DNA from: an uncultured Ruminococcus sp.
GTDB lineage: Bacteria > Bacillota > Clostridia > Oscillospirales > CAG-272
NCBI GenBank assembly: GCA_964430105.1
Contig: CAYSEF010000002.1
Span: 10,411-74,410, forward strand
Length of the DNA: 64,000 nt
Direction: 5' to 3'
Shown: positions 2,711 to 58,393 of the stretch, in pieces
Layout of the letters: each line of letters begins with the position of its first letter
Numbering within the stretch: position 1 is the first letter of the stretch
The notes under the pieces: generated by a model
What the model was told of the DNA's origin: nothing
Database searches by the model: none
What the model saw: the letters and a program-made list of their open reading frames with translations, nothing else
Position numbers and translations under genes: made by a program

Positions 2711-4834
<2,124 letters not shown>

Positions 4835-32537: not shown

Positions 32538-33881
32538 TTGAAATCAGTTTGGTCACCGCTTCTTTTACAGGTAATTCTTATCGCATTGAACGCAATTTTC
32601 GCCTGTGCAGAGATTGCAGTTCTTTCTGTAAATGAAGCAAAAATATCAAAGCTCGAAGAAGCGGGCAACAAAAAAGCTAAAAAACTACGAAAACTTACTG
32701 AGCACCCCTCAAAGTTCCTTTCTACAATTCAGGTTGCTATCACCTTGTCCGGATTTCTCGGCTCGGCGTTCGCAGCTGACAACTTCGCTGTACGCCTTGT
32801 TGATTGGGTAGTCGGTATGGGTCTTAATGTTGACAGAAATCTTCTCCAAAGCATTGCAGTCATCATTATAACACTCGTTCTCTCCTACTTTACTCTTATC
32901 CTGGGCGAGCTGGTTCCTAAGCGTATCGCAATGAAGAAAAGCGAAACTATCGCTCTTGCACTTGCACCAATGCTCAGCGCAGTAGCAAAGGTTTTTACAC
33001 CTATCGTATGGTTCCTTTCTCTTTCTACAAACGGTGTTCTCCGTCTTATCGGAATTGACCCCAACGAAGAAGATGAAAATGTCAGCGAGGAAGAAATTCG
33101 TCTGCTCACAGATGAAGCAGGTGAAAAGGGTGTTATCGATGAACAGGAGCAGGAAATCATTCAGAACGTATTTGAATTCGATGATCTTACTGTGAGCGAA
33201 TTTGCTACGCATCGTACAGATATTTCTGTTCTCTGGCTTGAGGAAGACAATGAAGCATGGAAAAAGACTATACTCGAAACCAGTCATTCGTACTATCCGA
33301 TATGCAGTGATACCATCGACAATGTTGTTGGTGTGCTTTCAATGAAGAATTACTTCCGCTTACATAATTCCGACAGAGATACTCTCATGAAGGAAGCTGT
33401 AAAGCCTGCACATTTCGTATCGGAAGGCACTCATGCGGACGTTCTTTTCAAGCAGATGAAGTCTTCACACAATCATTTTGCAGTTGTTCTCGATGAATAC
33501 GGCGGAATGGCAGGTATTGTAACAATGAATGACCTTCTTGAACAGCTTGTCGGCGATTTCAACGGTGAACCTGAAAAAATCGAAGAAGCAGATATCCGCA
33601 ATATCTCGGAGGATACATGGGAAATCAAGGGAACTGCCGCACTCAGCGATGTCGGTAAGGAGCTTGGACTCGACATGGAAGAGCTTGATCACGACACTAT
33701 GGGCGGTTATGTATTCTCAAATTACGGCATGATTCCGGATGATGGCAGCGAATTTGAAATAGAACTTCCCCGTTTGCACATTCATGTTACTGAGATCAAG
33801 GATCACAGAATCGTGAAAATGACAGTAACTAAGCTCGCTGTAGAGGACGAAGCTGAAGCTGACAACGGAAACGAAGATTAA
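32538..33881 (+). CDS. CNNM/CorC-type hemolysin-family transporter (DUF21 + CBS pair + CorC_HlyC)
   Basis: N-terminal 4-TM DUF21 (...ALNAIFACAEIAVLSV...), CBS region (...VMTHRTDI-like ATHRTDISVL) and a C-terminal CorC_HlyC part. TTG start 8 nt after GGAGG. Confidence 0.9.
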   Translation: MKSVWSPLLLQVILIALNAIFACAEIAVLSVNEAKISKLEEAGNKKAKKLRKLTEHPSKFLSTIQVAITLSGFLGSAFAADNFAVRLVDWVVGMGLNVDRNLLQSIAVIIITLVLSYFTLILGELVPKRIAMKKSETIALALAPMLSAVAKVFTPIVWFLSLSTNGVLRLIGIDPNEEDENVSEEEIRLLTDEAGEKGVIDEQEQEIIQNVFEFDDLTVSEFATHRTDISVLWLEEDNEAWKKTILETSHSYYPICSDTIDNVVGVLSMKNYFRLHNSDRDTLMKEAVKPAHFVSEGTHADVLFKQMKSSHNHFAVVLDEYGGMAGIVTMNDLLEQLVGDFNGEPEKIEEADIRNISEDTWEIKGTAALSDVGKELGLDMEELDHDTMGGYVFSNYGMIPDDGSEFEIELPRLHIHVTEIKDHRIVKMTVTKLAVEDEAEADNGNED

Positions 33882-33905
33882 CTAAAAATTCAATATTTCA
33901 CACCT

Positions 33906-33954
33906 GGCGTATCGCATTTGCATTTGATAATGTAATTTGCGATACGCCTTTTTT
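33906..33954 (+). terminator. Intrinsic terminator after the CNNM gene
   Basis: Perfect 11-bp stem GGCGTATCGCA/TGCGATACGCC followed by T6. Confidence 0.8.
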
Positions 33955-33991
33955 CAGCCTCAAATTTGTACCCTAATTATGTGCAAAACGA

Positions 33992-34020
33992 TTGACAGAA
34001 GCTGAAAAAGATGTTATAAT
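33992..34020 (+). promoter_or_regulatory. Consensus sigma-A promoter of the TerB/ATPase/helicase operon
   Basis: TTGACA (33992-33997), 17 nt, then TATAAT (34015-34020). The track ORF 'start' at 33992 is in fact the -35 hexamer. Confidence 0.7.
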
Positions 34021-34069
34021 GATGTATTACGAACTAATGTTTGTTTTTGTCAAAAAAGAGGTACACGGC

Positions 34070-36157
34070 ATGAGCAATAATCACAAAAACAAGTCAGAAG
34101 AATACAACATTGAGCTGAATAAAACAGTCGAGGATATACTCATTAAGGTAAATGAAGTCCTCAACGATGCTCAAAAGAACAACAATACCGAAATCGATGT
34201 TTCTCTTAATCTCGAGCTTGATACACTCACGCCCACAGAACGCTCCGTTTCAGAATCAACACCTGCTCCCGTGAGAGGTGACGACAATTTTTGGGATCTC
34301 GGAAAACCAAAGCCCCGTGTATATGCACAGCCGAAATTCTCCGCCGATTCATTGAGTGTGACGGAAATTCACGACACTTCCGATATCGAGAGCAAGTCAA
34401 ATTCGTCGGATTCTGAGCAAAACAGCACAAACACAGCTAAAGCTGAGAAAATACTCCCTCGTGAGGCGTATGATTTTCGTGACAAAGAAGCTGCACGTCG
34501 TCCTGCTGACAATATTCACAGTGTCGGATCATCAGGAAAGGTCGTCAACACAATAAACGGCCCACGTTCTGTTCCGGATTCTGCAAATAGAATCGTCACA
34601 AGCTCATACCGTCGCAAGCCTCCTATAAATAAAAACCCCTTAAACGCACGAAAGCCTGCCGAAACTGTTAAGTCTTACCGTCCAGACGGTATTCTCATAC
34701 GAGAAGTTATCGTTCGTACTTGGGAAACCGATATGGAATTCTATGGAAGATTTGCTTCGGATGCACTGATAAGTCATCGTGCATCATCGAAAATTCCTAT
34801 CACAGCAGAGCCGGAGCCTGTGCCGTATTTCTCATATGTCCCGCAATACGCACACATGAACCATTCTCAGCTCGAATACTATCGCTGGGTTCGTGAATGT
34901 ATAAGAAACGGTAAGTATCCCCCCTGCGACCTGTCCTATATTCAGCTGTATATATTTGAAATAATCAATCTTCCGGGTGAAATTCTCCCAAATGACGGTG
35001 CTAATCTTTTAGCCTCAATATGGCTTCATTACCGCAAACAGCACCCTCGCCTTGACGGATATCTCTGCGAATGGTTTGCTGATTATTGTCTTATCGGAGG
35101 ATGCAATATACCATCTGAGCTTAGCTCAATACTGTACGAAATCGTTCCCAAGGCACAGTTCAAGGAATTTTACCTCAACAATTTGTCTGACAGCGGAAAC
35201 GATCTCGGAAAAACTGTACTTGAAGTTTCATCCGACTACGACTATCGCAAAAGCCGTTATTACGCCGACAACAAGGATGCCTATGAAAAATATATTCCAT
35301 CAGCTGTAACCGCTGTTTTGAACGATAGCTGTAAGCATAACCGTGGTATTTTTTCACTCGACAGAACCTATCGCATGACAAGAGACAGCTACTGTGGTGC
35401 TATAGTTTCATCAGGAATAAAACGTCGTATCGATATCGAATTTCTATCCTTTACAAGACGTGCAAACACTCGTCAAGCAGTAACAGCTATTGCAAAATAC
35501 ACTGAAAACAAGCTTCGTGCAGTACTCGGAATTAAAGCAAAGCTTGGTGTAGACAATATAGACCCGATAGATTCCGCACTGCTCGACAAATTCTTTGAGC
35601 CACTCATTCCAGTAAAGCAGAAAAAAACTAAGGATGAGCTGTATATGCCTGCCGATTACATGAAAAACTACGAATCAGAGGATTCCGGCTTTGATTTTGC
35701 GACAGCTCAGGCAATAGAAGCTCAGTCGTGGATGAACACAGGCAGACTTACGGGTGACGAAACAATGCTCTCGGAAAGCTCCGAACCTGTAGCGGAATAT
35801 ATTCCCGATGAAGAACCGGTGATAGATGGCGAAATATCCGCAGATGTCGAAGCACTTGACTGCACAGAAAATGCTGTAAATGGCGAAAGTGTTGACGATA
35901 AAAGCGTAGACGATGCAACGAAAAAAGACGATGCAAACACAGATGAATTTCTAAAAGAAGCACTTCAAGCGTCACTGATAGGCAACTTCAGAGCATTCTG
36001 CCGTTCGCATGAGGTGCATGAGGGTGATATAGCTGACCGTATAAACACTATCTTCCTTGATGAGGATGAGCTTGGAGATGTTGTACTCGAAAATACGGGC
36101 AGTGGATTTGAACTTATAGAAGATTACAGAGAGGATGTTGAAAATTGGCTGTCATAA
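34070..36157 (+). CDS. sngA: TerB-N and TerB-C domain protein (Shango SngA-type)
   Basis: The ATG at 34070 follows AAGAGG. The central ...FSYVPQYAHMNHSQLEYYRWVRECIRNGKYPPCDLSYIQLYIFEIINL... matches the TerB_N signature as I remember it. The C-terminal ...GDIADRINTIFLDEDELGDVVLE...ELIEDY... is TerB_C-like. The N-terminal third is low-complexity. Confidence 0.7.
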   Translation: MSNNHKNKSEEYNIELNKTVEDILIKVNEVLNDAQKNNNTEIDVSLNLELDTLTPTERSVSESTPAPVRGDDNFWDLGKPKPRVYAQPKFSADSLSVTEIHDTSDIESKSNSSDSEQNSTNTAKAEKILPREAYDFRDKEAARRPADNIHSVGSSGKVVNTINGPRSVPDSANRIVTSSYRRKPPINKNPLNARKPAETVKSYRPDGILIREVIVRTWETDMEFYGRFASDALISHRASSKIPITAEPEPVPYFSYVPQYAHMNHSQLEYYRWVRECIRNGKYPPCDLSYIQLYIFEIINLPGEILPNDGANLLASIWLHYRKQHPRLDGYLCEWFADYCLIGGCNIPSELSSILYEIVPKAQFKEFYLNNLSDSGNDLGKTVLEVSSDYDYRKSRYYADNKDAYEKYIPSAVTAVLNDSCKHNRGIFSLDRTYRMTRDSYCGAIVSSGIKRRIDIEFLSFTRRANTRQAVTAIAKYTENKLRAVLGIKAKLGVDNIDPIDSALLDKFFEPLIPVKQKKTKDELYMPADYMKNYESEDSGFDFATAQAIEAQSWMNTGRLTGDETMLSESSEPVAEYIPDEEPVIDGEISADVEALDCTENAVNGESVDDKSVDDATKKDDANTDEFLKEALQASLIGNFRAFCRSHEVHEGDIADRINTIFLDEDELGDVVLENTGSGFELIEDYREDVENWLS

Positions 36158-37569
36158 ATAATGCTGTAACAAAGGTTCCGCGCAGAATACTTGGCACACT
36201 TCTGTCGTCGATGTCAGCCGGAGTCGTTCCGAGAGTAGGCGCACCTTATATCGCAATAGGTCGTACTGAGGAGATCGAAGCACTTGTCAACGCACTCGAC
36301 CGTGTTGCAGATGGCGAAGGCTCTACAAAATTCATCATCGGACGCTACGGTTCGGGTAAAAGCTTCCTGATTCAGCTATCTCGTGGATATGCGCTTGACA
36401 AGGGCTTTATTACCGCTGACTGTGACCTATCTCCCGAAAGAAAATTATCCGGAAACGGAAACAGCGGACTCGCAACTTATCGTGAGCTGATGAAAAATAT
36501 TGCCTGCAAATCATCACCGGATGGCGGTGCACTTCCTGTTATACTCGGAAAATGGTTCACTAATATCGGAAGTGAGCTTGAAGCGGAAGGAATTGCCTCG
36601 TCAAGCGAAAAATATACCGTCGAATTCGGCCATCGCATTATGAAAAATCTGCGTGAGCTTGAAGCTGATGTCGGTGGGTTTGATTTTGCTTCAGTCCTGC
36701 GTGAATACTACTACGGTTGGCGTGACGATGATGATATGAAGCAATCAGCTTGCCTGAAATGGCTCCGTGGAGAATACAACACACGCACAGAAGCTCGTCA
36801 GGCAACAGGAATACGCTCGCTGTCTGTTATAAACGACGATAACTGGTACGATTACCTCAAGCTTATAACAGCCTTTGTTCGACTTGTAGGCTATTCCGGA
36901 CTTTGCGTTTACATTGATGAATGTGTAAATCTTTACAAAATACCGAACAGAATATCGCGTGAAAATAATTACGAAAAAATACTTGCCATGTTCAACGACA
37001 CAATGCAGGGACGTGCTCCCGGAATGATGATCGTTTTTGGCGGTACTCCACAGTTTCTCGAAGACAGCAGACGTGGGCTTTACAGCTATGAAGCTTTGCG
37101 AAGTCGTTTAGCTGACGGTCGTTTCGGCGGAGGAGAGCTTCGTTCACTGATGCAACCCGTAATAAGACTTCGCAGACTTTCCGACAGTGAGCTGTATGCA
37201 CTTGTAATTCGTCTTGCGTCACTGCACGGTGAATATCACAAATGGCAGCCTCGTGTAACGGAAGAAAATATGCGTGACTTTCTCATGGGTTCTCTCTCCC
37301 GTGAAGGTGCCGATTCAATGATAACTCCCCGTGAGGTAATACGAGATTTCGTAACGCTTCTCGATTTGCTATATACAAACACAGATAAATCCTTTGAGGA
37401 TATTGTCGGCGCAGTACAGCGAACAAGTGTTTCAAGAGATATCGATGATGCAGATGATGACACGAGCATGACGATAGCCACAGCCCAGGCGAACACTTCT
37501 GCAAATGCTAATTCTGCCAACACAACTCCGACTAAACCGAAAATTACTCTTGACGATATCGAGTTTTAA
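36145..37569 (+). CDS. sngB: DUF2791/BrxD-like P-loop ATPase (Shango SngB-type)
   Basis: Walker A GRYGSGKSF and Walker B LCVYIDE. The N-terminal ...AGVVPRVGAPYIAIGRTEEIEAL... is typical of DUF2791. TTG start (the only in-frame start after the TGA at 36139) overlaps sngA by 13 nt. Confidence 0.7.
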   Translation: MAVINNAVTKVPRRILGTLLSSMSAGVVPRVGAPYIAIGRTEEIEALVNALDRVADGEGSTKFIIGRYGSGKSFLIQLSRGYALDKGFITADCDLSPERKLSGNGNSGLATYRELMKNIACKSSPDGGALPVILGKWFTNIGSELEAEGIASSSEKYTVEFGHRIMKNLRELEADVGGFDFASVLREYYYGWRDDDDMKQSACLKWLRGEYNTRTEARQATGIRSLSVINDDNWYDYLKLITAFVRLVGYSGLCVYIDECVNLYKIPNRISRENNYEKILAMFNDTMQGRAPGMMIVFGGTPQFLEDSRRGLYSYEALRSRLADGRFGGGELRSLMQPVIRLRRLSDSELYALVIRLASLHGEYHKWQPRVTEENMRDFLMGSLSREGADSMITPREVIRDFVTLLDLLYTNTDKSFEDIVGAVQRTSVSRDIDDADDDTSMTIATAQANTSANANSANTTPTKPKITLDDIEF

Positions 37570-37627
37570 TTCAACAATGCACAGCTTTGATTGTGCCTAA
37601 ATTTTAATTTTCACAATGGAGGCTCCA

Positions 37628-39844
37628 ATGTCCGTATTCGACAAATATTCCCCTTTCATTCGTGAATATATCTATTCCCACGGCTGGGACTCACTTTCTC
37701 CCGTACAGGTTGCGGCCGCTGAGATACTTTTTTCATCTGACTGCAACCTTCTTCTGCCTTCTCAAACTGCATCAGGCAAAACAGAAGCCGCTTTTTTCCC
37801 GATACTCTCCGAATTTTACGATGATATGCCAAATTCCTTCGGTGCTATCTATATAGCTCCGCTGAAATCGCTTATCAATGACCAGTTCGGGCGAATATCT
37901 GAGCTTTGTGACGAAACCGGTATACCTGTCTATCATTGGCACGGTGATGTGGCAGCCTCACACAAGCAGAAGGCTCTTAAAAATCCACGCGGAATTTTAC
38001 AAATCACGCCGGAATCGCTTGAAGCTATGCTTATCACACGTTCGTCAGACCTCATTCGACTTTTCGGTGATCTAAGATATGTAGTTATCGATGAAATTCA
38101 CACGCTCACGGGAGTTGACAGAGGAAATCAAATAATCTGTCAGCTCAGCAGACTTCGTGAAAAAACAGGTGTATCTCCAAGACGAATCGGGCTTTCCGCA
38201 ACTCTCGGTGATATGGAAAGAGCAGCGTCATGGCTCGGTGCAGGAAGCGGTCGAGATACAAAAATTCCTGCTATTCCTCCGTCAAAGGTAAAATGGCGAC
38301 TCGGAATGGAGCATTTCTACATCGTCGATAAGGATGTAGCAGAATCCATGACACCCGAAAACAACCGTCGTGAGGAGCATATTTCCCTCGACAAAGGATA
38401 CGAATATATCTACGATGCCACAAAAGGCAAAAAAGCTATTGTTTTTTCAAATTCACGAGAAGAAACGGAATACATCTGCGCTACTCTGCGAGAAATTGCG
38501 ACATACAGAGGTGAGCCTGACGTTTTCCTGATACATCACGGATTTCTTTCGGCAAGCATACGAGAAGAAGCTGAGCTGAAAATGAAGGATGATGACATTA
38601 AAGCTGTAGCCTGTGCAACCGTTACAATGGAGCTTGGCATAGATATAGGACGGCTTGAGCGTGTGATACAGCAAGGCTCACCCAATACAGTATCGTCATT
38701 CCTGCAAAGGCTCGGCAGATCCGGCAGACGTGGTGATCCGCCTGAAATGATGATGGTATTCCGTGAAGAAAATGCACTTCCGAATACTCCCCTTCCACAG
38801 CTAATACCGTGGGAACTGCTGAAGGCTATTGCTATTGTACAGCTTTATATTGAGGAACGCTTTATAGAGCCACCTATGCTTCGTCGCTGTCCGTTCTCAC
38901 TTCTTTTTCAGCAGACCTTATCTGTAGTTGCCTCATCCGGTGCTATAACCGCAAAAGAGCTTGCTCAAAAGATTCTCTCACTCCCTCCGTTTGCATATAT
39001 CGAAGAAAACGACTACAAAACGCTCCTTCTTTCTATGATAAACAACGACTGGCTCGAATTAACTGACGAACGTGAGATTATCGTAGGTCTGCGTGGCGAA
39101 CGTCTTGTAAATTCGTTCAAATTCTATGCTGTATTCAAGGACAGCGAGGATTACACGGTTCGCTGTGAATCTGATGAGATAGGCGTTATAACGACTCCAC
39201 CTCCGGTAGGTGACAGATTCGCACTTGCAGGTCGAGTTTGGGAAGTAGAGGAGCTTGATATTCCACGACATCTTATATATGTAAAAGCAGTTCAGGGCAA
39301 AATGGAAATATCGTGGCCCGGTGACTATGGCGAGGTTCACACTCGAATACTTGAAAGAATGCGTCAGGTACTCTGTGAAGATACGGAATATCCATACCTC
39401 CGTGAAGGGGCACTTCAAAGGCTGAGAGTAGCTCGTGCAGTCGCTCGAAATACCGGTCTTTGCAATTCATGTATACTTCCACTCGGCGGATACACATGGG
39501 CATTGTTCCCGTGGCTCGGTACACGCAGTTTCAGAACCTTACGCAGATATCTCGTAAGAAATGCAGGCAAATTCAAGCTTACCGGCATGGATTTTGAAGG
39601 TTGCTATTATATGACCTTCAAGCTTGAGGGCGGTCGTGGTGATGATCTAATGAAAATGATAGCAGAAAAGATCGGCAATGAAGGAATTGATCTCGACTCA
39701 CTCATAAATCCAAACGAAACCCCTGTTTTTGACAAATACGACGAATTTATCCCAAGTGAACTTTTACAAAAGGCATATCGTGAGGATAAACTGCGCTCTG
39801 ATGAAATTCTGAATCGGCTTGAAAATTACGGCTTTAAGCTGTAA
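37628..39844 (+). CDS. sngC: Lhr-like DEAD/DEAH-box SF2 helicase (Shango SngC-type)
   Basis: Motif I SQTASGKT, motif II VIDEIH, motif III SATLG and motif VI QRLGRSGRRG, with a long C-terminal extension. The ATG at 37628 is 5 nt after GGAGG; 37616 is an alternative start. Confidence 0.8.
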   Translation: MSVFDKYSPFIREYIYSHGWDSLSPVQVAAAEILFSSDCNLLLPSQTASGKTEAAFFPILSEFYDDMPNSFGAIYIAPLKSLINDQFGRISELCDETGIPVYHWHGDVAASHKQKALKNPRGILQITPESLEAMLITRSSDLIRLFGDLRYVVIDEIHTLTGVDRGNQIICQLSRLREKTGVSPRRIGLSATLGDMERAASWLGAGSGRDTKIPAIPPSKVKWRLGMEHFYIVDKDVAESMTPENNRREEHISLDKGYEYIYDATKGKKAIVFSNSREETEYICATLREIATYRGEPDVFLIHHGFLSASIREEAELKMKDDDIKAVACATVTMELGIDIGRLERVIQQGSPNTVSSFLQRLGRSGRRGDPPEMMMVFREENALPNTPLPQLIPWELLKAIAIVQLYIEERFIEPPMLRRCPFSLLFQQTLSVVASSGAITAKELAQKILSLPPFAYIEENDYKTLLLSMINNDWLELTDEREIIVGLRGERLVNSFKFYAVFKDSEDYTVRCESDEIGVITTPPPVGDRFALAGRVWEVEELDIPRHLIYVKAVQGKMEISWPGDYGEVHTRILERMRQVLCEDTEYPYLREGALQRLRVARAVARNTGLCNSCILPLGGYTWALFPWLGTRSFRTLRRYLVRNAGKFKLTGMDFEGCYYMTFKLEGGRGDDLMKMIAEKIGNEGIDLDSLINPNETPVFDKYDEFIPSELLQKAYREDKLRSDEILNRLENYGFKL

Positions 39845-39854
39845 GCCATGGAAA

Positions 39855-40366
39855 AACATATTCAGCCACACTATTTTTAATATTACATCTCCCAAAAGGA
39901 GTTTATTATGCCTGATTATATCTCTATACGCGGTGCGCGTATGAATAACCTAAAAAATATTTCTATAGACATACCGCGTGATAAGCTTGTGGTTTTTACA
40001 GGTCTCTCCGGTTCGGGAAAATCCTCTCTTGCTTTCGACACAATATATGCAGAAGGTCATCGACGCTTTGTTGAATCACTCTCGTCCTATGCTCGTATGT
40101 TTATCGGTCAAACATATTCAGCCACACTATTTTTAATATTACATCTCCCAAAAGGAGTTTATTATGCCTGATTATATCTCTATACGCGGTGCGCGTATGA
40201 ATAACCTAAAAAATATTTCTATAGACATACCGCGTGATAAGCTTGTGGTTTTTACAGGTCTCTCCGGTTCGGGAAAATCCTCTCTTGCTTTCGACACAAT
40301 ATATGCAGAAGGTCATCGACGCTTTGTTGAATCACTCTCGTCCTATGCTCGTATGTTTATCGGTCA
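39855..40366 (+). repeat. Perfect tandem direct duplication, 2 x 256 bp (39855-40110 and 40111-40366)
   Basis: Base-by-base comparison found no mismatch. Each unit contains the uvrA 5' UTR, the RBS AAAGGAG and uvrA codons 1-68. Confidence 0.95.
39908..40171 (+). pseudogene. Duplicated uvrA 5' fragment ORF (68 UvrA residues including Walker A, plus 19 residues read from the duplicated 5' UTR)
   Basis: [18 protein letters not shown]...GLSGSGKSS...MFIGQ is identical to the uvrA N-terminus, and is followed by [19 protein letters not shown]. The stop at 40169-40171 overlaps the true uvrA start by 8 nt. Confidence 0.85.
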
Positions 40367-42998
40367 GCTCGACAAGCCCGATGTTGACTCGATAGAAGGG
40401 CTTTCACCGGCAATTTCGATAGATCAAAAAACCACATCGAAAAACCCTCGCTCCACTGTCGGAACAGTTACAGAAATTTATGACTACCTCCGTTTGCTCT
40501 ATGCACGTCTTGGAGTACCGCATTGTCCTGTATGTGGCCGTGAAATTCGTCAGACCTCCGTTGACCTGATTATCGACAAGCTCATGGAAATGCCCGTTGG
40601 CGAAAGATTTATGATACTCTCCCCCGTTGTTCGAGGAAAAAAAGGCAGACAGGAAAAAATTCTCGCTGACGCTAAGAAAAACGGCTATGTTCGTGCAAGA
40701 ATCGATGGAATTTTATATGATCTCACAGAGGATATCGAGCTTGACAAAAATCTCCGTCATACAGTCGAGCTTGTTATTGACAGACTTGTGATGAAGGAAG
40801 ATCTACGCAGTCGTCTTACCGATTCAGTTGAATGTGCTTTGCGTGAATCTGACGGATCTGTACTCTGTGTAACTGTCCCTCGTGATGGTGAGTCTGTAGA
40901 AACTGAATTTTCAACAAACTATGCTTGTCCTGAGCATGGTATCTCCTTCGGTGAGCTGGAGCCTCGTATGTTCTCGTTCAATAATCCGTTTGGTGCCTGC
41001 CCGACCTGCAGCGGACTTGGTGTTCTGCGTTCTGTTGATCCACGCAAGATTATTCCCGATAAGTCACTTAGCCTTGGTGAAGGTGCCATTGCTGTAAACG
41101 GCTTCAAAACTCTTACCGATGACTCATGGAACGGCCCTTTGATTCTGGCAGCTCTCGAAAAATACGGAATAACTCTTGATACTCCTATCAAGGATTTCTC
41201 AAAAAAAGCATATGACACTCTCCTATACGGTTCACCTGAGGTTCTTACCGTCACACGTTCTTTCGGCGGTCACAAGCAGCTTCAAACTACTGCATACGAA
41301 GGTCTTATCAAAATGATTGAAAAGCGTTCTCAACCCGGTGGCGGTGCATGGGAGCACGAATATTACGAGCAGTTTCTTACCGATGTTGACTGCCCTGACT
41401 GTCATGGTGCAAAGCTCAATCAATCTGCACTCGGCGTAACTGTCGGTGGTAAAAATATCCATGAATTTTGCATGATGTCCGTTAAGGATTCTCTGAAATT
41501 TACAAATTCGCTCACTTTCTCGGATATGGAAATGCAGATTGCGCATGAAATACTGAAGGAATTACGCAGTCGTCTTGGTTTTCTTGTATCAGTTGGGCTG
41601 GATTATCTCTCACTTGCAAGAAAATCTGCTACTCTCTCCGGTGGCGAGGCTCAGCGAATCAGACTTGCAACTCAGATAGGCTCATCTTTGGCAGGTGTGC
41701 TTTACATCCTTGACGAACCTTCTATAGGACTTCATCAGAGAGATAACACAAAGCTTATCAAAACCCTGCAAAGTCTGCGTGATCTCGGAAATTCTGTTAT
41801 AGTTGTAGAACACGACGAAGAAACCATGCAGGCGGCAGATTACATCGTTGATATCGGTCCGGCTGCCGGTATACATGGTGGTGCTATTGTGTCACAGGGC
41901 ACTCCGGCAGAGGTTTCAGCTGACCAAAATTCAGTTACAGGTGCATTTTTATCAGGCAGACGAAAAATCGAGGTTCCGACTATCAGACGTGCCGGAAACG
42001 GAAAAAAGCTCACTATAGTCGGTGCAAGGGAAAATAATCTCAAAAATATCGATGTAGATATACCTCTCGGATGCTTTGTTTGCGTTACAGGTGTGTCAGG
42101 CTCGGGTAAATCATCTCTCGTAAATTCGATTCTCTATCGTTCACTGGCGGCAAAGCTGAATCGTGCGATAACCTTCCCGGGTGATCACGACAGAATAGAC
42201 GGTGTAGAAGCACTCGACAAAATAATCGCAATCGACCAGTCCCCTATCGGACGTACTCCACGTTCAAATCCTGCTACCTACACAGGTCTTTTCAACGATA
42301 TACGAAACCTGTTTGCTCAAACTCCCGGTGCGAAAATGCGTGGCTACAGTAGCGGACGTTTTTCGTTCAATATCAAGGGTGGCAGATGTGAAGCCTGCGA
42401 GGGTGATGGCGTAAAGAAGATAGAAATGCATTTTCTCCCCGACGTATATGTGACCTGCGATGTATGCCACGGAAAACGCTACAATCGTGAAACACTTGAG
42501 GTTAAATACAAGGAAAAATCCATTGCGGATGTACTTGAAATGACAGCTGACGAGGGAGTTGAATTCTTCCGTGATCTTCCAAAAATCGCAAACAGACTTG
42601 AACTGCTCTGCAAAGTCGGTCTGGGATATATCAAAATAGGTCAAGCCTCAACAACTCTTTCAGGCGGTGAAGCACAGAGAGTAAAGCTTGCGACCGAGCT
42701 TTCAAAGCGTTCCACAGGTCGAACACTGTATGTTCTCGATGAACCTACAACGGGCCTTCATACAGCTGATGTTGAAAAGCTTATCGCAATACTGCAAGCA
42801 CTGGTTGACGGAGGTAATACTGTCGTTGTTATAGAGCATAACCTTGATGTTATCAAATGTGCGGATCACATCATAGATATGGGTCCCGAAGGTGGAGATG
42901 GCGGTGGTATGGTTATCGCACAGGGTACACCGGAGGAAATTTCTACGGTAGAAGCTTCTTACACAGGACAGTACTTAAAAGACAAGCTGAAATTCTAA
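40164..42998 (+). CDS. uvrA: Excinuclease ABC subunit A
   Basis: 944 aa. Two ABC modules (GLSGSGKSS and GVSGSGKSS), LSGGEAQR twice, and Zn-finger CxxC pairs. Confidence 0.97.
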
Positions 42999-43021
42999 TC
43001 AAATCTTAATCTGCCCATGCC

Positions 43022-43051
43022 TTGACACGATAAATAGATTCGTGCTATAAT
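43022..43051 (+). promoter_or_regulatory. Candidate promoter of the downstream membrane protein gene
   Basis: TTGACA (43022-43027), 18 nt, then TATAAT (43046-43051). Confidence 0.6.
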
Positions 43052-43098
43052 TTTCATACAGTCATTTGAACCGTTTATACAAACGAAAGGACACTATC

Positions 43099-44763
43099 AT
43101 GAAAAAACGCACGACCGCTGTTATTGTTTATCTTATCGCAGCAGTCCTTCTCATTTGCGGAGTTTATTATGTAACGCTCCCGCCAATATCGATTTATTCC
43201 GGCGCATTTTGGACTTTCATGTTCTTTATTGATGCCGTAATATTCGTTTCTTACTTTATAATCGGCCTTATCACGGGGAAATTTTTCACTGAAACTGTAA
43301 AAATGCCCTCAGGTAATATAGATTTTCGCACATCAATGAACGGTCATAAGCCGAAATTCTATAAAGTACAACTTGTTTTAACTATTGCAGTTATCGTTTT
43401 CCTCGTTATCGGCTCGCTGATCGGCTCAGAAGTTTTCCGTGCAAAAACCTATTCCTCACTCATAAACGTACAGGAAAAGGATTTCGCAGATACTATTGCA
43501 GAAACTGAATATGTTTCCGATATTGCACTCATGGACACAGCTTCCGCAAGGATAATCGGTGCAAGAACACTCGGTACACTCTCCGATCTTGTATCGCAGT
43601 ATGAGGTTGCATATGATTACACGCAGATAGCAATGACCGACGGTGCTTCATCTAAGCCGTACAAGGTAGCTCCTCTTGAATATGCTTCATTTATCAAGTG
43701 GCTCACAAACAGCAGTTCAGGTATACCGGGTTATGTAAAGGTTGATGCAGTTGAATTTTCCGCTGAATTTGTCCGTCTGTCAGATTCTTATATCAAATAC
43801 AGCCCTTCCGCTTATTTCAGCCAGGATTTGTACCGTGCACTCAGATTTGCATATCCGACTAAGATTTTCGGCAGTATCTGCTTTGAAGTCGATGACAACG
43901 GACATCCGTATTGGGTAGCTTCTACCATGAAGCCAAATGCAGGTCTTTTCGGTGCAATGGACGTTGACACAGTTATCACACTTGACGCTTGCACAGGAGA
44001 AACTGTTGAATATATCCCATCCGAATCTCCTGACTGGATCGATATCGTTTATTACGGCAATCTCATTACTCGAAAATATGACTGGTACGGTATGCTGTCG
44101 GGCGGTTACCTCAATTCTGCCTTCAGTCAATCGGGATGCGTTGTTACAACAGATGATTACGGTTACAAAATCATTGGCAATGACGTTTATATTTTCACAG
44201 GTGTGACTTCGACCGCAGGAGATGAGGCAAACATCGGCTTTATCCTTGCAAACAGTCGCACAGGCGATTATCTTTATTTTGCAGTTCCGGGTGCTGAGGA
44301 ATATTCCGCAATGTCAGCGGCAGAAGGCTCGGTTCAGCAATACGGCTACAGAGCTTCATTCCCGTCTCTTGTAAATGTAGGCGGTGAGGCAACCTATATC
44401 ATGGTATTAAAGGATGCCTCCGGTATTGTAAAAATGTACTCTATGGTAAACATGGAAAACTACAACATTGTAGTTACAAGCGATACTCAAGATGATGTTT
44501 TCCGTAAATATAAAGCCGCACTTCGTCAAAACGGCTCTAAGGTTTCCTCAGATGAGCTAATTAACGAAGTGATAACAGTTGATGAGATACTCTACATTAC
44601 GATGAGTGGCGAAACTACTGTTTATATAAAGGCTCCAACAGGCATTTATGGCATGGAATTTGACGAAAGTGTATTATTCATCGAAGAAGGTGACAAAATC
44701 ACCGTAGCATATTCCGAGAAAAACGAAAATGGCGTGACACGCATAAACAATATCGTAAAATAA
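43099..44763 (+). CDS. Membrane protein of unknown function (3 N-terminal TM helices + ~430-aa extracytoplasmic domain)
   Basis: The ATG at 43099 follows AAAGGA. MKKRTTAVIVYLIAAVLLICG... No family recognised. Confidence 0.7.
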   Translation: MKKRTTAVIVYLIAAVLLICGVYYVTLPPISIYSGAFWTFMFFIDAVIFVSYFIIGLITGKFFTETVKMPSGNIDFRTSMNGHKPKFYKVQLVLTIAVIVFLVIGSLIGSEVFRAKTYSSLINVQEKDFADTIAETEYVSDIALMDTASARIIGARTLGTLSDLVSQYEVAYDYTQIAMTDGASSKPYKVAPLEYASFIKWLTNSSSGIPGYVKVDAVEFSAEFVRLSDSYIKYSPSAYFSQDLYRALRFAYPTKIFGSICFEVDDNGHPYWVASTMKPNAGLFGAMDVDTVITLDACTGETVEYIPSESPDWIDIVYYGNLITRKYDWYGMLSGGYLNSAFSQSGCVVTTDDYGYKIIGNDVYIFTGVTSTAGDEANIGFILANSRTGDYLYFAVPGAEEYSAMSAAEGSVQQYGYRASFPSLVNVGGEATYIMVLKDASGIVKMYSMVNMENYNIVVTSDTQDDVFRKYKAALRQNGSKVSSDELINEVITVDEILYITMSGETTVYIKAPTGIYGMEFDESVLFIEEGDKITVAYSEKNENGVTRINNIVK

Positions 44764-44769
44764 TAAAAC

Positions 44770-44824
44770 AACGCGGTATTCACTCTGCTCTTACACTGAG
44801 CTGTGAATATCGCGTTATTTTTTT
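44770..44824. terminator. Bidirectional terminator separating the membrane protein gene from the phage-like cluster
   Basis: AACGCGGTATTCAC/GTGAATATCGCGTT (one mismatch), with a T-run on the right and an A-rich left flank. Confidence 0.7.
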
Positions 44825-44898
44825 GACTCTTTCTCTTGATAAATTATATGCTGATTCTCATTGAACTATACCTGAATTTTCAGGAAATAAGATTATAT

Positions 44899-45993
44899 TC
44901 ACCCAACCTCAACAAGTGGTGTCACCTGCTTTACTTCACCGTCTTTTCCGATATACAAGCCCGATGCAAGCCTTATTTCACCATTTACACCGATATAAAT
45001 ATTCGACAGTATCGTTTTAAGAAGCTCGCTCGTTACATAACACGATCTGCTTGATGTTGCACGACCTACTGCACAAACTCTGTATTGTACAGTTTCAGCG
45101 CCAAGTGGTATCGTATCTGTAAATGAAGTCGAAGTACCCGCATAAATCAGCGTATAATCTCCTCCGTCAAGTGATCTTTCAAGCACAAATCCATTGGTTG
45201 CAGGGTAGTTTCCGTCTTCGATATACTTCCATGTGAGCTTTGACGGGGCACGAACAATGGGTGTTTCGCACTGAAGCTCAAACGGTGGACGTGGTCTGTT
45301 TTGATATGACACCACATAAAACGGACTCTCTACCTCAACCAGCTCGATATAATCCTCTCTTGCATCGTTTGCTGATTCGTATACACCCATATATAAAGTA
45401 ACGTAATACATCGAGCCTACAGCATGACTTTCAGATACATATCTGCTTACCGAAGCACTTGTGAATTTAGCAGTATAGACATTTGACATCGTCCAATAAT
45501 TCACATCAGCGTTTTTATAATGCTCTATCAGCCCAACACCGGCAGTAGGTCTTCCAAGCGGATCTTTTATACTCCACGATATAGTATGTGCCATCTGATT
45601 TCTCGGGCCGGGGCAAGTCAATGTGACCTCGGGACTAACGCTATCAAACGATGTACGCCAGGTGAAATCCATACCGTCAGTAGAGGCTTCATCTATTTGG
45701 CGATCGTCATAAAAAACGTACATTCCCGAAAGATTCACAGTTTTCACGTTATCGTTATACGGAAAAGTAACGCTCTGCTTTTCTCCAAACGGCTCTGCGT
45801 TTATCAATCTCGTATATCCGTTGTATTTCAGCGTGAGCTTAACAGATCCGTTGTAAAACTGTGCTGTTGAGCTTTGATAACCGAGTGTGACATACAATGT
45901 TTCGCCATCTGTTTCAACTCGCAGGTATCCTGAAAAATCGCTGTACCTTGAACCAAGCTTTAATTGCTCAACACTGCGAAATAACAGTTTCAT
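44899..45993 (-). CDS. Phage tail fibre/receptor-binding-like protein with an FN3-like domain
   Basis: It is the last gene of the tail module. The FN3-like segment is ...PSKLTWKYIEDG...GFVLERSLDGGDYTLIYAGTSTSFTDT...YRVCAV. GGAGG RBS. Confidence 0.55.
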   Translation of the reverse strand: MKLLFRSVEQLKLGSRYSDFSGYLRVETDGETLYVTLGYQSSTAQFYNGSVKLTLKYNGYTRLINAEPFGEKQSVTFPYNDNVKTVNLSGMYVFYDDRQIDEASTDGMDFTWRTSFDSVSPEVTLTCPGPRNQMAHTISWSIKDPLGRPTAGVGLIEHYKNADVNYWTMSNVYTAKFTSASVSRYVSESHAVGSMYYVTLYMGVYESANDAREDYIELVEVESPFYVVSYQNRPRPPFELQCETPIVRAPSKLTWKYIEDGNYPATNGFVLERSLDGGDYTLIYAGTSTSFTDTIPLGAETVQYRVCAVGRATSSRSCYVTSELLKTILSNIYIGVNGEIRLASGLYIGKDGEVKQVTPLVEVG

Positions 45994-46008
45994 CTTTATC
46001 CTCCCACG

Positions 46009-46713
46009 TTAATTCTCGGACAGCAGTACAAACAGCTCACCATCACCTAAAGATGAAGGAAGTGACGTACCGTAACCGATATTTCTGACTACCTGCTTTC
46101 CTGTAGCATCAGCTGCCGCACGAAGCTCACCCGTCATTGAGCCACCTGAACGAAGCAGATAATTCATCGCCGCGACTCCACCAAGCATATTTGCATTTTC
46201 AGCAAGTCCAACCGTCGCAAGAGCATCTACAGCCGAGGTTACGATGCCACATTTGTTTCTGTCAGTTCTTGTGTCTGTTATCATATCTGACGTTACTTCT
46301 ACAGCTGAAGCAGGTACAGTAATCTCAGCGATAACAAGATCCTTGATGCTGTCATTATTCAATGCACCACCATCTGTTAAGACAAGCTTAAACTCTCCTG
46401 CCAACGAATTGAGCCTGAGCATAACGGAATATGTTACTCCCTTTGCAAGAGTGAACGTCTGTGCAGTTTTCTGCCATGCCATATACCCTCTTATCCATGC
46501 GATTCCCGATGATATTTCAACAGTATATCCTGATTTTGGCACAACCTTGAAGCTGTCCTCACCACATATACCATCCTTATAAAAGCACTCTATCATCTTC
46601 GCAAAGAATACCGAATCAACTGCCTTATCCCCTCTCGGAAAGCCTCCGACAGTTTCTACTACCTCCGTTGAATCGAACATACCGCCATACACCGGCAAGG
46701 TTATTTCTGCCAT
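46009..46713 (-). CDS. Phage tail fibre-like protein
   Basis: MAEITLPVYGGMFDS... is an N-terminus common in siphophage fibre/baseplate proteins, and the C-terminal LLRSGGSMTGEL is a fibre motif. The ATG at 46713 follows GAAAGGAG. Confidence 0.55.
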   Translation of the reverse strand: MAEITLPVYGGMFDSTEVVETVGGFPRGDKAVDSVFFAKMIECFYKDGICGEDSFKVVPKSGYTVEISSGIAWIRGYMAWQKTAQTFTLAKGVTYSVMLRLNSLAGEFKLVLTDGGALNNDSIKDLVIAEITVPASAVEVTSDMITDTRTDRNKCGIVTSAVDALATVGLAENANMLGGVAAMNYLLRSGGSMTGELRAAADATGKQVVRNIGYGTSLPSSLGDGELFVLLSEN

Positions 46714-46789
46714 TGTAAAACTCCTTTCTAATATTGTATTCGAGGACACATCTGCAAAAAATGAGCCTCTTTGAATTTCTTAATTTCCT

Positions 46790-47821
46790 TCACACCGACA
46801 TTACACGTTTGACACGTCTTATTTCTTCACCAAATGACGGGCATATCAGGCAAAGTCCGTTTTCGTAAACTGTATCCACTGCTGTAAGTCGCAAAGCATA
46901 GGACAAACCAAAGCCCTCATCAACAACGTCACAAATATCTCCTATCAAATAGTCTTTACCATATCTTGGTAGCGCATCTGTGTCCGTTTCAGCAGTCACA
47001 TACAGTCCCCTCGGATATTTTGCCAAAGTTTCCGTACCTCTGATCCTCAGCGCAGTCTGATATTCCGTTTCATCGGCAAATTTTGAAGGTGCAATATCGG
47101 TTGCTTTTTTATAAATCTCACGCTTTTCACCGTTTTCCGATCTATCGACTGTTACAACAGTACCATCGCTTCCCTCAACATATGCTACATTTTTGAAATC
47201 GCTCGAATCCTGCTCAAGTGATATCGAAACTATATTTCCAAATGATGCCGAAAATATAGCAGGCTGTGTCGCTTCAATCGACTCCGAAGACCTATCGATT
47301 CCCTGCACTATACGGAATATCGGCTTCATTCTCTCACTGTCAAGTGTTATTTTATACGATGCGCCGTATGGTTTTAGCACAGAATACACCCAGTCAGACA
47401 GATTATCCCACTCATAAGGCAATACTGCTGTATCGGATATCACTGCCGATTCACCGATAATTATATCAAGTCCTCGTAAATTTGCTTCTACTGCTGACAC
47501 TACCGCCTCTGTTACAGTTCCGCTGTACGATGCCTTGCCTATCATTCGTCTGTCACTTAAAAGCACCTCAAGAAGATGCCCACCAAGCTCACAGCTGTTG
47601 TCCTCATCGCTTACAAGATACTCTATTCTCCCACATCTTTCTCCATCCGTTACATAAACAGCCTTCTCGAACACAGCTATCATTTCTCGCGGAAAATGCA
47701 GAGTGAATGAGCCGATTTCAAAATATCTTTCCGACCATACTACAGATGTAAGTGAATCTATCGGGCCAAATATCAGCGAAAAATCCTTGTCCAAAAGGAA
47801 TATCTCAGTCTTTTGATGCAT
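46790..47821 (-). CDS. Siphovirus ReqiPepy6 Gp37-like tail protein
   Basis: MHQKTEIFLLDKDFSLIFGPIDSLTSVVWSERYFEIGSFTLHFP matches my memory of the Gp37-like N-terminal signature. The ATG at 47821 follows GAGGTG. Confidence 0.65.
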   Translation of the reverse strand: MHQKTEIFLLDKDFSLIFGPIDSLTSVVWSERYFEIGSFTLHFPREMIAVFEKAVYVTDGERCGRIEYLVSDEDNSCELGGHLLEVLLSDRRMIGKASYSGTVTEAVVSAVEANLRGLDIIIGESAVISDTAVLPYEWDNLSDWVYSVLKPYGASYKITLDSERMKPIFRIVQGIDRSSESIEATQPAIFSASFGNIVSISLEQDSSDFKNVAYVEGSDGTVVTVDRSENGEKREIYKKATDIAPSKFADETEYQTALRIRGTETLAKYPRGLYVTAETDTDALPRYGKDYLIGDICDVVDEGFGLSYALRLTAVDTVYENGLCLICPSFGEEIRRVKRVMSV

Positions 47822-47829
47822 ATTGCACC

Positions 47830-48696
47830 TCACATTCCGTAATACAGTGGCGTGAATGTTATCTCTGCATCAACAAATTCCTCACCGCTGTCACAAGTAA
47901 TGCTGACTGAATTATCTCCCGGAATAAGACTGAAAAATCTGCTGTTTTTATCGAACACAAAGCTTCGTTCGCCATTTTTAGTGATATTTTTTCGTGCCTC
48001 TCTCGTATCTATTATAAGAACATCTCCGTCATCAAGAGTTATCGGACATTTTACAAAATCCTCTCCGCATACAATACCCGGATGAACGACAGCACCTCCT
48101 GAAGCAGCGATCTTTGCAACCAGTCCACATTCACCGTCACCGGTATTTTTGAGTACAGCGCTGTCTGTTGTGCGATACATACCTGAAACAGAGCCTGAAC
48201 CGGCCATAAAATTCATCGGAAATGTCAGCATCGGTGCAACGTCACGGAATGGAACAACAACATCCTCTGCGTCACGGAAAAATACTCCTGGTGCGATAAA
48301 CAAAACATTCACCTCTGTACTGTCGTAAAATGTACCACGATTAAATTCAGCTTCGTCATACGGTATAACAGATATTTTCCTGTGTACGCCACCGAACGCA
48401 ACATCAAGCTCACATTCAGCCTCAGGGTCAAGCATTGATACAATAAGTCTGCGTACTTCATCTGCTCTTTCAGGGAGAATTTCAAAGCTAAGTCCTATTT
48501 CACGCTCTGCAAAACGCTTTTTCTGTGGATATCCGCCTACCCTGCTTGCGTACGGTGCAAGTACCACATCAAATCCTGCCGAACCGAATCCTGTCATTCC
48601 ACCTTCAATAAGACGGCAATCTGCTGTAGGGGATATCTCAAGCTCTCGAATTCGCCCGTACTTCTTTGAAATCAGTTTTATTAAGTAGTCTGTCAT
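47830..48696 (-). CDS. Distal tail protein (Dit, Sipho_tail-like)
   Basis: It lies directly after the TMP with a 4-nt overlap. Size and beta-rich sequence are typical. Confidence 0.6.
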   Translation of the reverse strand: MTDYLIKLISKKYGRIRELEISPTADCRLIEGGMTGFGSAGFDVVLAPYASRVGGYPQKKRFAEREIGLSFEILPERADEVRRLIVSMLDPEAECELDVAFGGVHRKISVIPYDEAEFNRGTFYDSTEVNVLFIAPGVFFRDAEDVVVPFRDVAPMLTFPMNFMAGSGSVSGMYRTTDSAVLKNTGDGECGLVAKIAASGGAVVHPGIVCGEDFVKCPITLDDGDVLIIDTREARKNITKNGERSFVFDKNSRFFSLIPGDNSVSITCDSGEEFVDAEITFTPLYYGM

Positions 48697-49481
48697 AAAC
48701 GGAATATCGCCTCACTTTCACGTCGTATTCTTCTTGCAATCCTGTACGGTGAGTTTGTTTCATCACGAAGATAAATATTCTGCGTTACAGCTCTGCCACT
48801 TCCCTGACCGACAGATGAAACACCTCTCATCGCTGTAACTCCATAAACAGAATTCATTGCTCCGCTTACAAAAGGCGAACCGTCCAAAATACCTTCTGCG
48901 ATACCTCGTGATATCATAACTCCGACCTCATCTCTCATAAGCCTTGACGGTGATGATATTTGATAATATGCCTTCAAAGCTGTATTTGCTTCCTCTGCAA
49001 CCTGTTTTATCGCAGAAACGACCTCAGCCCCCGCCGAACGTATACCGGAAGCTACTCCTGACATGATATTTCCACCAATAGATGACCACCCACTTGACTG
49101 AAATGCTGATATTGCCTGTGACGCTATCAAGCTGACCGCAGAGGTTACAGCACTGCCACCTGATGACACACCGCTTGATATTGCAGAAACCGCCTGTGTG
49201 CCTGCCGAAGACCAACCTGCTCCTGTAAATGAAGCTATCGCAGCTGTAGCAGTATTCTGCATCGTTGAAGAAATATTTTCTGCCATTGCCGTAACGGATT
49301 CAGATACTCCCGACAACGCTTGTGCCATGGAAGCAGATATTCCGTCAGCTGCAAACGCCTGTGCCATAGAGGTATTTATTCTTGTGCCAAGCTCGCGTAT
49401 CTGAAATTCAAGCGAAGTTGCCGATGCCGAAAAGGATGAAGTATCTAACGCAACTCCTATAACAATCGATCCATCTGCCAT
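48693..49481 (-). CDS. Tape measure protein, unusually short (262 aa)
   Basis: It sits between the chaperones and Dit. The Ala/Ser/Gly-rich repetitive sequence (…SASMAQA…, AVSAISSGVSSGGSAVTSAVS…) is typical of TMPs. Confidence 0.65.
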   Translation of the reverse strand: MADGSIVIGVALDTSSFSASATSLEFQIRELGTRINTSMAQAFAADGISASMAQALSGVSESVTAMAENISSTMQNTATAAIASFTGAGWSSAGTQAVSAISSGVSSGGSAVTSAVSLIASQAISAFQSSGWSSIGGNIMSGVASGIRSAGAEVVSAIKQVAEEANTALKAYYQISSPSRLMRDEVGVMISRGIAEGILDGSPFVSGAMNSVYGVTAMRGVSSVGQGSGRAVTQNIYLRDETNSPYRIARRIRRESEAIFRL

Positions 49482-49496
49482 AGTTTTTCTCCTTTC

Positions 49497-50108
49497 TTAA
49501 GGCTTGTTTGAATTATTCTGTATTTGCTCTCTCTTTGGCAAACGAACTGCCGCTCTTGCACGTCTTAACTGCTTTCGCAAGCCATCGTCCGCTATTTTCG
49601 TCACGTCAATGCTCCTCAATTCAACCGTCTGCATAAATGCACAATCTCGTGGCAAGCATCGCAATAATGCCATAAATTTCCACCAATGCATATTGATCTC
49701 GTTCAAATCTATGCCATACACAGCCATAAACGATGCAAAAATACGTTCGCTGTCTATCTCAAAATCGAATACAGGCATATTTTTTGACGAGCTTTGTGCG
49801 TGTTTTGCGTTATTTTCACTTGTATACAAAGCATCACCGCATAGTGCAAAGCATCCGGCTTCACGAATAAATTCCTCTGCCAACGAACGATTCTTACACA
49901 AAGCCGAACGGATGGCAGGACAGACCAGCATTGCCGCACAGTCTGCCACTGTTAAACCATCAAGTTCTGTTTCAAGCAACTCGGTAAAGAGTATCCAGCG
50001 ACGAAAATCAGTTATAAGCTTGTACGAAATACCACCAACCGTGATACTGCTCGGCAATCTGTCGCAAATTAGCGATGCTTTTCCACTCACCTCACCGACT
50101 GACATCAC
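49497..50108 (-). CDS. Phage Gp15-family tail assembly protein
   Basis: ...ITVGGISYKLITDFRRWILFTELLE... resembles Phage_Gp15. It lies immediately upstream of the TMP. Confidence 0.6.
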   Translation of the reverse strand: MMSVGEVSGKASLICDRLPSSITVGGISYKLITDFRRWILFTELLETELDGLTVADCAAMLVCPAIRSALCKNRSLAEEFIREAGCFALCGDALYTSENNAKHAQSSSKNMPVFDFEIDSERIFASFMAVYGIDLNEINMHWWKFMALLRCLPRDCAFMQTVELRSIDVTKIADDGLRKQLRRARAAVRLPKREQIQNNSNKP

Positions 50109-50515
50109 ATTACCACCGCCTCAGCACCGCCAAGCTCAGCGATACGAGTGGCGAATTTTTCGGTCACACGCTTATCAACATCCTCACGGAATTTTTTCAA
50201 AGCTTCAAGCTGTTCATTCACGAACATTATAAAATCAACATACGCTCCCATGTGTGCCTCAAAACTGCTTCTGTCACCACAAATAACCACTACCTTATCT
50301 TCTCCGAAAACTGCTTTGAAAAATTCACCTATCATTCCACATACACGCTCTATTTCTTCAGGTGTATTCTTTTCGCTTCCATCTGTAGCTTCATAGTTTT
50401 CACGCAATTCCTCAAGCGCAAGGTTTATTCGCTTCATACATTCGCTGTCACTGATATCAAAGTAGTGTTCGGCACCATTCCAGCTCCATGTGTGGTTTCT
50501 TATCGTGTTTTCCAT
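50105..50515 (-). CDS. Tail assembly chaperone-like protein
   Basis: Acidic ~136-aa protein between the tube gene and Gp15. The ATG at 50515 follows AAGGAGAG. Confidence 0.5.
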   Translation of the reverse strand: MENTIRNHTWSWNGAEHYFDISDSECMKRINLALEELRENYEATDGSEKNTPEEIERVCGMIGEFFKAVFGEDKVVVICGDRSSFEAHMGAYVDFIMFVNEQLEALKKFREDVDKRVTEKFATRIAELGGAEAVVM

Positions 50516-50541
50516 CGTTGCTCTCCTTTCCGTTATTTGAA

Positions 50542-51021
50542 TCAATCAGCAGTAAATACACCGCTGGCTTTTACAAAAGTTCCTGTAATAATATCGCTTA
50601 CCGCCTTCATCGTGCCTGTATAGCATAGTGCATCTGTGCCTTCACCACATTCGTCGGGAATAACGGAATAGGTTCGCTTTACAGCATGATATACTCCCTC
50701 TGTAGAAGTAACATCGAACAAATCTACAGCTATAATATCAACCCTTGCCTCCTCGCCTACAAGCTCACGATCTGTTATAAGACGTATCTTATCGATAACG
50801 GCGTTTCCGGCGTAAACCTCAAGCTCATAATCGATTTCAGGTGCATAGCCCGTCACATCTGTTCGCTTTGTTATCTCATGAATATATCGTCGTGAATAAT
50901 TGATCGGATTTTTTGTTTCCATAAATTCGGTAAAGCCTTCGCCTATCAAGGACCAAATCGGGCTTTCCGCAGTTCCTGTGTTCATGTAATGCTGTCTGTC
51001 AGCTCTTTTTACAATAGCCAT
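50542..51021 (-). CDS. Major tail (tube) protein
   Basis: 159 aa. Assigned by position and by the N-terminal ...YMNTGTAESPIWSLIGEGFTEF... pattern typical of siphophage tube proteins. Confidence 0.6.
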   Translation of the reverse strand: MAIVKRADRQHYMNTGTAESPIWSLIGEGFTEFMETKNPINYSRRYIHEITKRTDVTGYAPEIDYELEVYAGNAVIDKIRLITDRELVGEEARVDIIAVDLFDVTSTEGVYHAVKRTYSVIPDECGEGTDALCYTGTMKAVSDIITGTFVKASGVFTAD

Positions 51022-51038
51022 TGTTTACTCCTTTATTT

Positions 51039-51814: not shown

Positions 51815-51824
51815 CCACAGTACC

Positions 51825-52172: not shown

Positions 52173-52202
52173 ATTAAACCTCCGTTTCCCGTATTTTGCC
52201 AA

Positions 52203-52499: not shown

Positions 52500-52520
52500 A
52501 GCTTCACCTCATCAGATAAA

Positions 52521-53612: not shown

Positions 53613-53650
53613 AATTTTAATCCTTTCTTTAATTGAAAATTTTTCCTTGA

Positions 53651-54079: not shown

Positions 54080-54103
54080 ATTTTAATCCTCCTTAAAATT
54101 CAT

Positions 54104-55492: not shown

Positions 55493-55528
55493 TTTATCAA
55501 CTCCTTTCTTTTTGTTTGCTTGTTACCA

Positions 55529-58375: not shown

Positions 58376-58393
58376 AATTTACCTTATCTGCTC

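Follow-up and report, generated by a model that had tools for sequence, protein, structure and literature searches.

A perfect 256-bp tandem duplication of the 5' end of uvrA, seen in a single assembly

Most documented spontaneous tandem duplications are gene amplifications of kilobases to megabases under selection. Perfect direct repeats of 256 bp, the length described here, are a substrate for both RecA-dependent and RecA-independent deletion. Leader peptides and other upstream ORFs coupled to the following gene are conserved when they are genuine. In evolving Pseudomonas fluorescens, tandem duplications have been reported with 0-1 bp of microhomology at the junction and with no signature of recombination (bioRxiv 10.64898/2026.05.22.727201). 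Direct duplications may also be written by software: long-read metagenome assemblers are documented to produce false ones that the reads do not support, often numerous, with per-sample averages from 600 bp to >4,000 bp and 88-96% identity (bioRxiv 10.1101/2025.04.22.649783).

Here, we analysed a 64-kb stretch of DNA, called the window throughout, in which the 5' end of uvrA is present twice behind the genes of a Shango anti-phage system (Table 1). When the sequence was compared with itself directly, w[i] = w[i+256] held across 257 consecutive positions, the first being 39854, and TRF reported 39854-40366 as 2.0 copies of a 256-nt period with 100% matches and no indels. The repeat finder also returned the two copies with 100% identity, and this pair was the sole direct or inverted repeat of at least 40 nt that it found within the window. 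The bases flanking the matched run differ on both sides (39853 A versus 40109 C, and 40111 A versus 40367 G). The boundaries given in Table 1 are equivalent to 39855-40110 and 40111-40366, the ambiguity at the junction being 1 nt (A). A perfect repeat of 256 nt cannot have formed by chance. Reading of the sequence, TRF, the repeat finder, and the string comparison together bear out the perfect 256-bp tandem duplication that the first-pass annotation had described, and the string comparison also bears out the single nucleotide of microhomology (A) that it had placed at the junction.

Table 1 Coordinates of the duplicated unit, the overlapping ORFs, and the upstream Shango genes in the window (SD, Shine-Dalgarno sequence)
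Feature	Position	Strand	Description
sngA	33992-36157	+	TerB_N; PADLOC SngA E=3e-39
sngB	36145-37569	+	BrxC/D-type ATPase; PADLOC SngB E=4e-158
sngC	37628-39844	+	DEAD/Helicase_C; PADLOC SngC E=7e-241
Duplication copy 1	39854-40109	+	Last 54 nt of the sngC-uvrA leader, SD AAGGAG (39896-39901), the first 67 codons of uvrA plus 2 nt of codon 68; copy 2 matches it at 100%
Chimeric 87-aa ORF	39908-40171	+	UvrA residues 1-68 with Walker A GLSGSGKS, then 19-residue tail from the duplicated leader
Duplication copy 2	40110-40365	+	Identical leader and SD (40152-40157), then the start of intact uvrA
Intact uvrA	40164-42998	+	944 aa, own SD; UvrA_inter, UvrA_DNA-bind, and ABC_tran domains

The two copies adjoin head to tail with no spacer and share one new junction, which is the arrangement of a tandem duplication. 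At this junction (40109/40110), the sequence reads TTTATCGGTC, then the ambiguous A, then AACATATTC, and the sequence specific to the duplicated form is GTATGTTTATCGGTCAAACATATTCAGCCAC. The borders of the unit in the single-copy (wild-type) form are GCCATGGAAAAACATATTCAGCC on the left and GTTTATCGGTCAGCTCGACAAGC on the right. No long repeats flank the unit, and the microhomology of 1 nt falls within the 0-4 nt taken to define its class of formation. There were no Ns or gaps at the junction; hairpins at the breakpoints were not significant (z = -1.35, -0.11, and -1.31), and the repeat finder detected no inverted repeats there. The unit had been annotated as starting 10 nt past the helicase stop codon and as comprising the 5' UTR, the RBS, and the first 68 codons of uvrA. 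The stop codon of sngC lies at 39842-39844, which gives an offset of 9-10 nt, and the extent was reproduced, the unit comprising 67 codons and 2 nt. Codon 68 at the end of the unit is CAA in place of CAG and encodes Gln either way.

Subsequently, the reading frames of the region were considered. The upstream ORF starts at an ATG (39908) that follows the SD sequence AAGGAG by 6 nt, and its TGA (40169-40171) overlaps the uvrA ATG (40164) by 8 nt; an own RBS and a stop codon overlapping the downstream start are both features of a regulatory upstream ORF. Its 19-residue tail is the duplicated leader translated in frame. A Pfam search with the 87-aa sequence gave only a sub-threshold match to the N-terminal part of ABC_tran, and the signature motif, Walker B, the zinc module, and the DNA-binding and UvrB-binding regions are all missing from the fragment. 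As the first P-loop is all that it keeps of the UvrA domains, the fragment is most likely inert and degraded. The following uvrA gene is full length, every UvrA domain was found in it, and the exact 944-aa UvrA also occurs in single-copy Logan contigs. Translation thus reproduced what had been annotated from the letters: an 87-aa upstream ORF composed of the UvrA N-terminus with its Walker motif and 19 leader residues, which ends 8 nt inside uvrA, and an intact uvrA with its own RBS. Because ribosomes that finish the upstream ORF would stop 5 nt past the uvrA ATG, translation of uvrA is probably coupled to the upstream ORF by reinitiation, and the output of UvrA would probably be little changed.

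The genes upstream of the duplication were assigned by PADLOC and Pfam. SngA (TerB), SngB (ATPase), and SngC (helicase) occur together and in this order, in agreement with the sngC-type helicase of the first-pass annotation. From the sngC stop codon to the first ATG there is a gap of 63 nt, and simple scans found no terminator-like site between sngC and uvrA, as had been noted for the defence operon. Promoter-like matches within the unit overlap the SD sequence and the ATG and are as frequent as in the background. No LexA/Cheo box was present within 1 mismatch in the duplicated leader or near uvrA.

The place directly upstream of uvrA belongs to uvrB in about 60 of 80 related Clostridia genomes. 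The present species and its nearest relatives to as low as ~73% nucleotide identity (L003, L004, L090, L091, and L094) have sngC there instead, and the sngC-uvrA gap measures ~43-64 nt. The sngB gene is also found upstream of sngC in the relatives wherever the contig extends that far; the window has the full sngABC set, and uvrB is missing from its 64 kb. Judging from gene order, the clade conserves the linkage of Shango with uvrA, and the Shango genes and uvrA are possibly co-transcribed.

Several other features of the window were recorded. Just downstream of uvrA are genes for a 565-aa protein (43066-44763, plus strand) and a 364-aa protein (44899-45993, minus strand), for which there were no Pfam or PADLOC matches. 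Both are conserved in conspecific contigs. In L003, the 565-aa protein recurs with 75% amino-acid identity, and a 357-aa ORF occupies the corresponding place on the minus strand. Two perfect LexA/Cheo-box-like sites, GAACATTCGTTC, are located at 60907-60918 and 61495-61506. The first lies just past a TATAAT (60891-60896) and 33 nt before a 102-aa ORF (60951-61259), which is the first member of a small cluster on the plus strand, the last being a DUF1643 protein (62410-63039); the cluster is possibly an SOS-regulated operon. GC skew is -0.13 to -0.26 from ~46 kb to ~59 kb and near zero upstream, and the negative stretch falls together with a long series of genes on the minus strand (44899-60703). 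Gene orientation and the replication strand probably account for it.

We then compared the locus with its relatives. The host is an uncultured gut bacterium of the Oscillospiraceae/Eubacteriales. Conspecific metagenome contigs, recovered through look-ups with exact proteins, showed 99.4-99.9% nucleotide identity to the window (runs SRR17221322, SRR17221325, SRR17221338, SRR17221339, SRR17221340, SRR17221342, SRR17221343, and SRR19576319). Six of them, one per run, extend across the site (L001, L002, L083, L084, L085, which is the same as L089, and L088); each carries one copy of the unit and a sngC-uvrA gap of 63-64 nt. BLAST split each conspecific spanning contig into two pieces, both of which abut position 40110 of the window. 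The contig L084 equals the single-copy version of the window at 1501 of 1501 positions (39300 to 40800). One copy was also found in L094 (~97% nucleotide identity), in L090 and L091 (~82%), and in the species-level relatives L003 and L004 (~73-75%), where sngB-sngC-uvrA is present. Of the 11 related contigs that reach across the site, with nucleotide identities between 99.9% and ~73%, none (0 of 11) has the duplication. No duplication of the uvrA 5' end was seen among 80 species-level relatives, and the UvrA of the closest species-representative genome is 85% identical. On the evidence of these contigs, both the six conspecific ones and the more distant ones, the single copy is the ancestral state, and the duplication sits on the terminal branch of one assembly.

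The first-pass annotation had attached significance to the zero divergence between the copies. This premise is weak: strain divergence is 0.1-0.6%, from which 0.3-1.5 differences per 256 nt are expected, and gene conversion would erase those. We infer that identity of the copies needs no special cause and is unremarkable even for a duplication as old as the strains.

Other variable features lie close to the site. Strain polymorphisms occur just past the sngC stop codon, namely G/A at 39845 and a T indel at 39849 (CCATGG versus CCATTGG). The Logan contig L087 ends at 39847, near these two sites, and L086 ends at 40002, directly before a T/C strain SNP at 40003; neither end coincides with a border of the duplication. 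Tandem repeats of other kinds were seen in the relatives. In L007 (MAG Oscillospiraceae SIG635), positions 3627-3972 hold 2.9 copies of a 118-bp repeat at 97% identity, which spans the 3' end of uvrB and the intergenic region to ~30 nt before the uvrA ATG and is unrelated to the duplication in the window. This repeat is probably real because its copies have diverged. L019 (9232-10074) and L027 (9648-10218) have tandem repeats with periods of 359 nt and 130 nt, respectively, several kilobases downstream of uvrA; these too have no relation to the duplicated locus.

The deposited record was also searched. Among ~15 billion proteins, the chimeric 87-aa product is a singleton cluster whose only source is NCBI, from one contig of 82,475 nt. 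Besides Logan assemblies, an NCBI contig of 82,475 nt carries the exact UvrA, SngC, and SngB of the window, and three control small proteins from elsewhere in the window were likewise traced to an 82,475-nt NCBI contig. Since the 87-aa product exists only with the duplication and is on record, we take the duplication to belong to the deposited assembly and not to be damage to the window. Exact searches gave 0 matches for the junction 37-mer in the JGI metagenome and IMG/VR collections and 0 matches for the leader 43-mer in genome and metagenome contig collections; the source is apparently outside these collections. The partial products predicted from contig breaks at a fixed duplication (UvrA 1-67, 1-68, and 58/59/60-944) are absent from the protein collection. 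The look-up found no Logan run with both the exact SngC and the exact UvrA, and in the stretches that were aligned no run reached 100% identity to the window.

Taken together, these findings lead us to favour, with moderate confidence, a genuine duplication that is very young, private to the strain, and without selected function. The anatomy is that of a simple illegitimate duplication, with one junction, 1 nt of microhomology, and no flanking repeats. The window is otherwise free of Ns, and short-read contigs covering 33628-45999 of it show no indels relative to it except for one strain-polymorphic intergenic T, and the 118-bp unit beside uvrA in L007 indicates that natural tandem repeats occur in this clade. 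A short-read de Bruijn assembler writes a junction only if the junction k-mers occur in the reads. In the proposed course of events, a homology-independent event would have joined nucleotide 203 of uvrA to a point 10 nt past the sngC stop codon, either by template switching or fork slippage or by end joining between sister chromosomes, and 256 bp would have been copied head to tail. uvrA would keep its full ORF and its own Shine-Dalgarno sequence, while the first copy would become an upstream ORF with an equally good one. Unless selected, the duplication would be lost again through recombination between the copies. Because such repeats are unstable, the duplicated form is presumed to be a transient state, which agrees with its absence from all relatives. 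If the assembly was made from short reads, the true copy number could be above two.

Several observations weigh against a real duplication and are shared with the leading alternative, namely that the organism has a single copy and the second was written by the assembler, so that the 87-aa ORF is a spurious call. This could have happened, for example, through unmerged overlapping ends of contigs or reads, through a mis-traversed loop, or through a long-read metagenome assembler that duplicated sequence. We regard it as a serious possibility, although one that we would not expect to prove correct. The duplication is seen in exactly one assembly, whereas all 11 related spanning contigs are single-copy, one of them from a strain identical over 1.5 kb. 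The junction sequence is absent from the other collections searched, and the contig-break pattern expected of a fixed duplication in k=31 assemblies appears in no Logan contig. Perfect identity combined with essentially no junction homology is equally typical of false duplications. The period of exactly 256 (2^8) may be a coincidence, yet it is slightly likelier for a computational artefact.

Some features may speak against an assembler error. The site is internal to the window, its junction shows neither Ns nor gaps, and the window contains no second repeat of this kind; unsupported repeats at least 40 nt long do not recur within its 64 kb. Furthermore, the breakpoints are off the strain-variable sites (39845, 39849, and 39875; 40087 and 40144), 4-34 nt away from them and with no consistent k offset. 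To our knowledge, neither 256 nor 257 is the k or k-1 of common assemblers. As a rule, a repeat is collapsed and not expanded by short-read de Bruijn assemblers. Two particular forms of assembly error were tried and rejected: a contig glued from two strains at the junction, as the density of SNPs relative to each reference contig is similar left and right of it, and breakpoints at a fixed k-mer distance from strain-variable sites, as the offsets are inconsistent.

A selected regulatory duplication, in which the upstream ORF is coupled to uvrA and tunes UvrA or in which the 87-aa P-loop fragment has a role of its own, is very unlikely. The strong SD sequence of the upstream ORF and its TGA 5 nt past the uvrA ATG give a geometry compatible with coupling; sngC and uvrA are not separated by any terminator-like site, and the clade conserves the position of Shango beside uvrA. 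However, none of the 11 spanning relatives has the duplication, including strains that are >99.9% identical, the 87-aa product is a singleton among ~15 billion proteins, and its tail is merely the leader read in frame behind a fragment without the signature, Walker B, DNA-binding, and UvrB-binding parts. The upstream ORF is accordingly not conserved in relatives. A maintained device would be expected in strains >99.9% identical and is absent there; hence we reject the active maintenance or regulation of uvrA that the first-pass annotation had offered as one option, the comparison with related strains that it had proposed having returned a single copy in 11 of 11. There is likewise only a slim chance that the duplication is a strain-specific adaptation, whether termination-reinitiation coupling changes the output of UvrA or a free N-terminal P-loop peptide modulates UvrA dimerisation. 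The setting of such an adaptation would be a uvrA that in this clade has lost its usual uvrB partner and its promoter and lies behind Shango without a terminator. If true, the adaptive reading would describe a regulatory element caught at birth.

Corruption of the window itself, that is, a 256-base block repeated in data handling after download, would suit the power-of-two length and the perfect copy but is scarcely credible, as the duplication-dependent 87-aa ORF is on record from a contig that carries the exact UvrA, SngC, and SngB with it, which refutes such corruption, provided that the protein collection does not itself derive from that corrupted copy.

In retrospect, the first-pass annotation described the locus accurately and listed the right options, leaving the choice between them open; from these, maintenance and a data artefact in the sense of a corrupted window are now removed. 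Events, or errors, of this type are already well known, and nothing points to a function. A real duplication would be one snapshot of how short, unstable tandem duplications constantly come and go in bacterial genomes, here with uvrA retained. An artefact would be a minor fault of a public assembly, and one that has already placed a spurious 87-aa "protein" in databases. Annotation and scanning pipelines should treat a tandem repeat that is perfect, private, and accompanied by a truncated paralogue ORF as unverified until the reads have been checked.

As for known systems, the surroundings correspond to Shango, whose three genes all occur in order and match strongly in PADLOC. They are context only, being outside the duplicated unit, which begins 9-10 nt past the sngC stop codon. 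Leader peptides and coupled upstream ORFs resemble the 87-aa ORF in its own SD sequence and in a stop codon that overlaps the uvrA start by 8 nt, but genuine ones are conserved, whereas this ORF is absent from every relative and consists of the uvrA N-terminus and leader. With the published false duplications (bioRxiv 10.1101/2025.04.22.649783), the locus shares a direct repeat private to one assembly and an extra spurious ORF; it differs from them in being single, short, and 100% identical in 64 kb. Relative to the documented amplifications, the uvrA case involves only 256 bp and no whole genes, shows no sign of selection, and is known from assembly sequence alone. The resemblance to spontaneous homology-independent tandem duplications lies in the head-to-tail order, the one junction, the 0-1 nt of microhomology, the perfect identity of the copies, and the single copy in the closest relatives.
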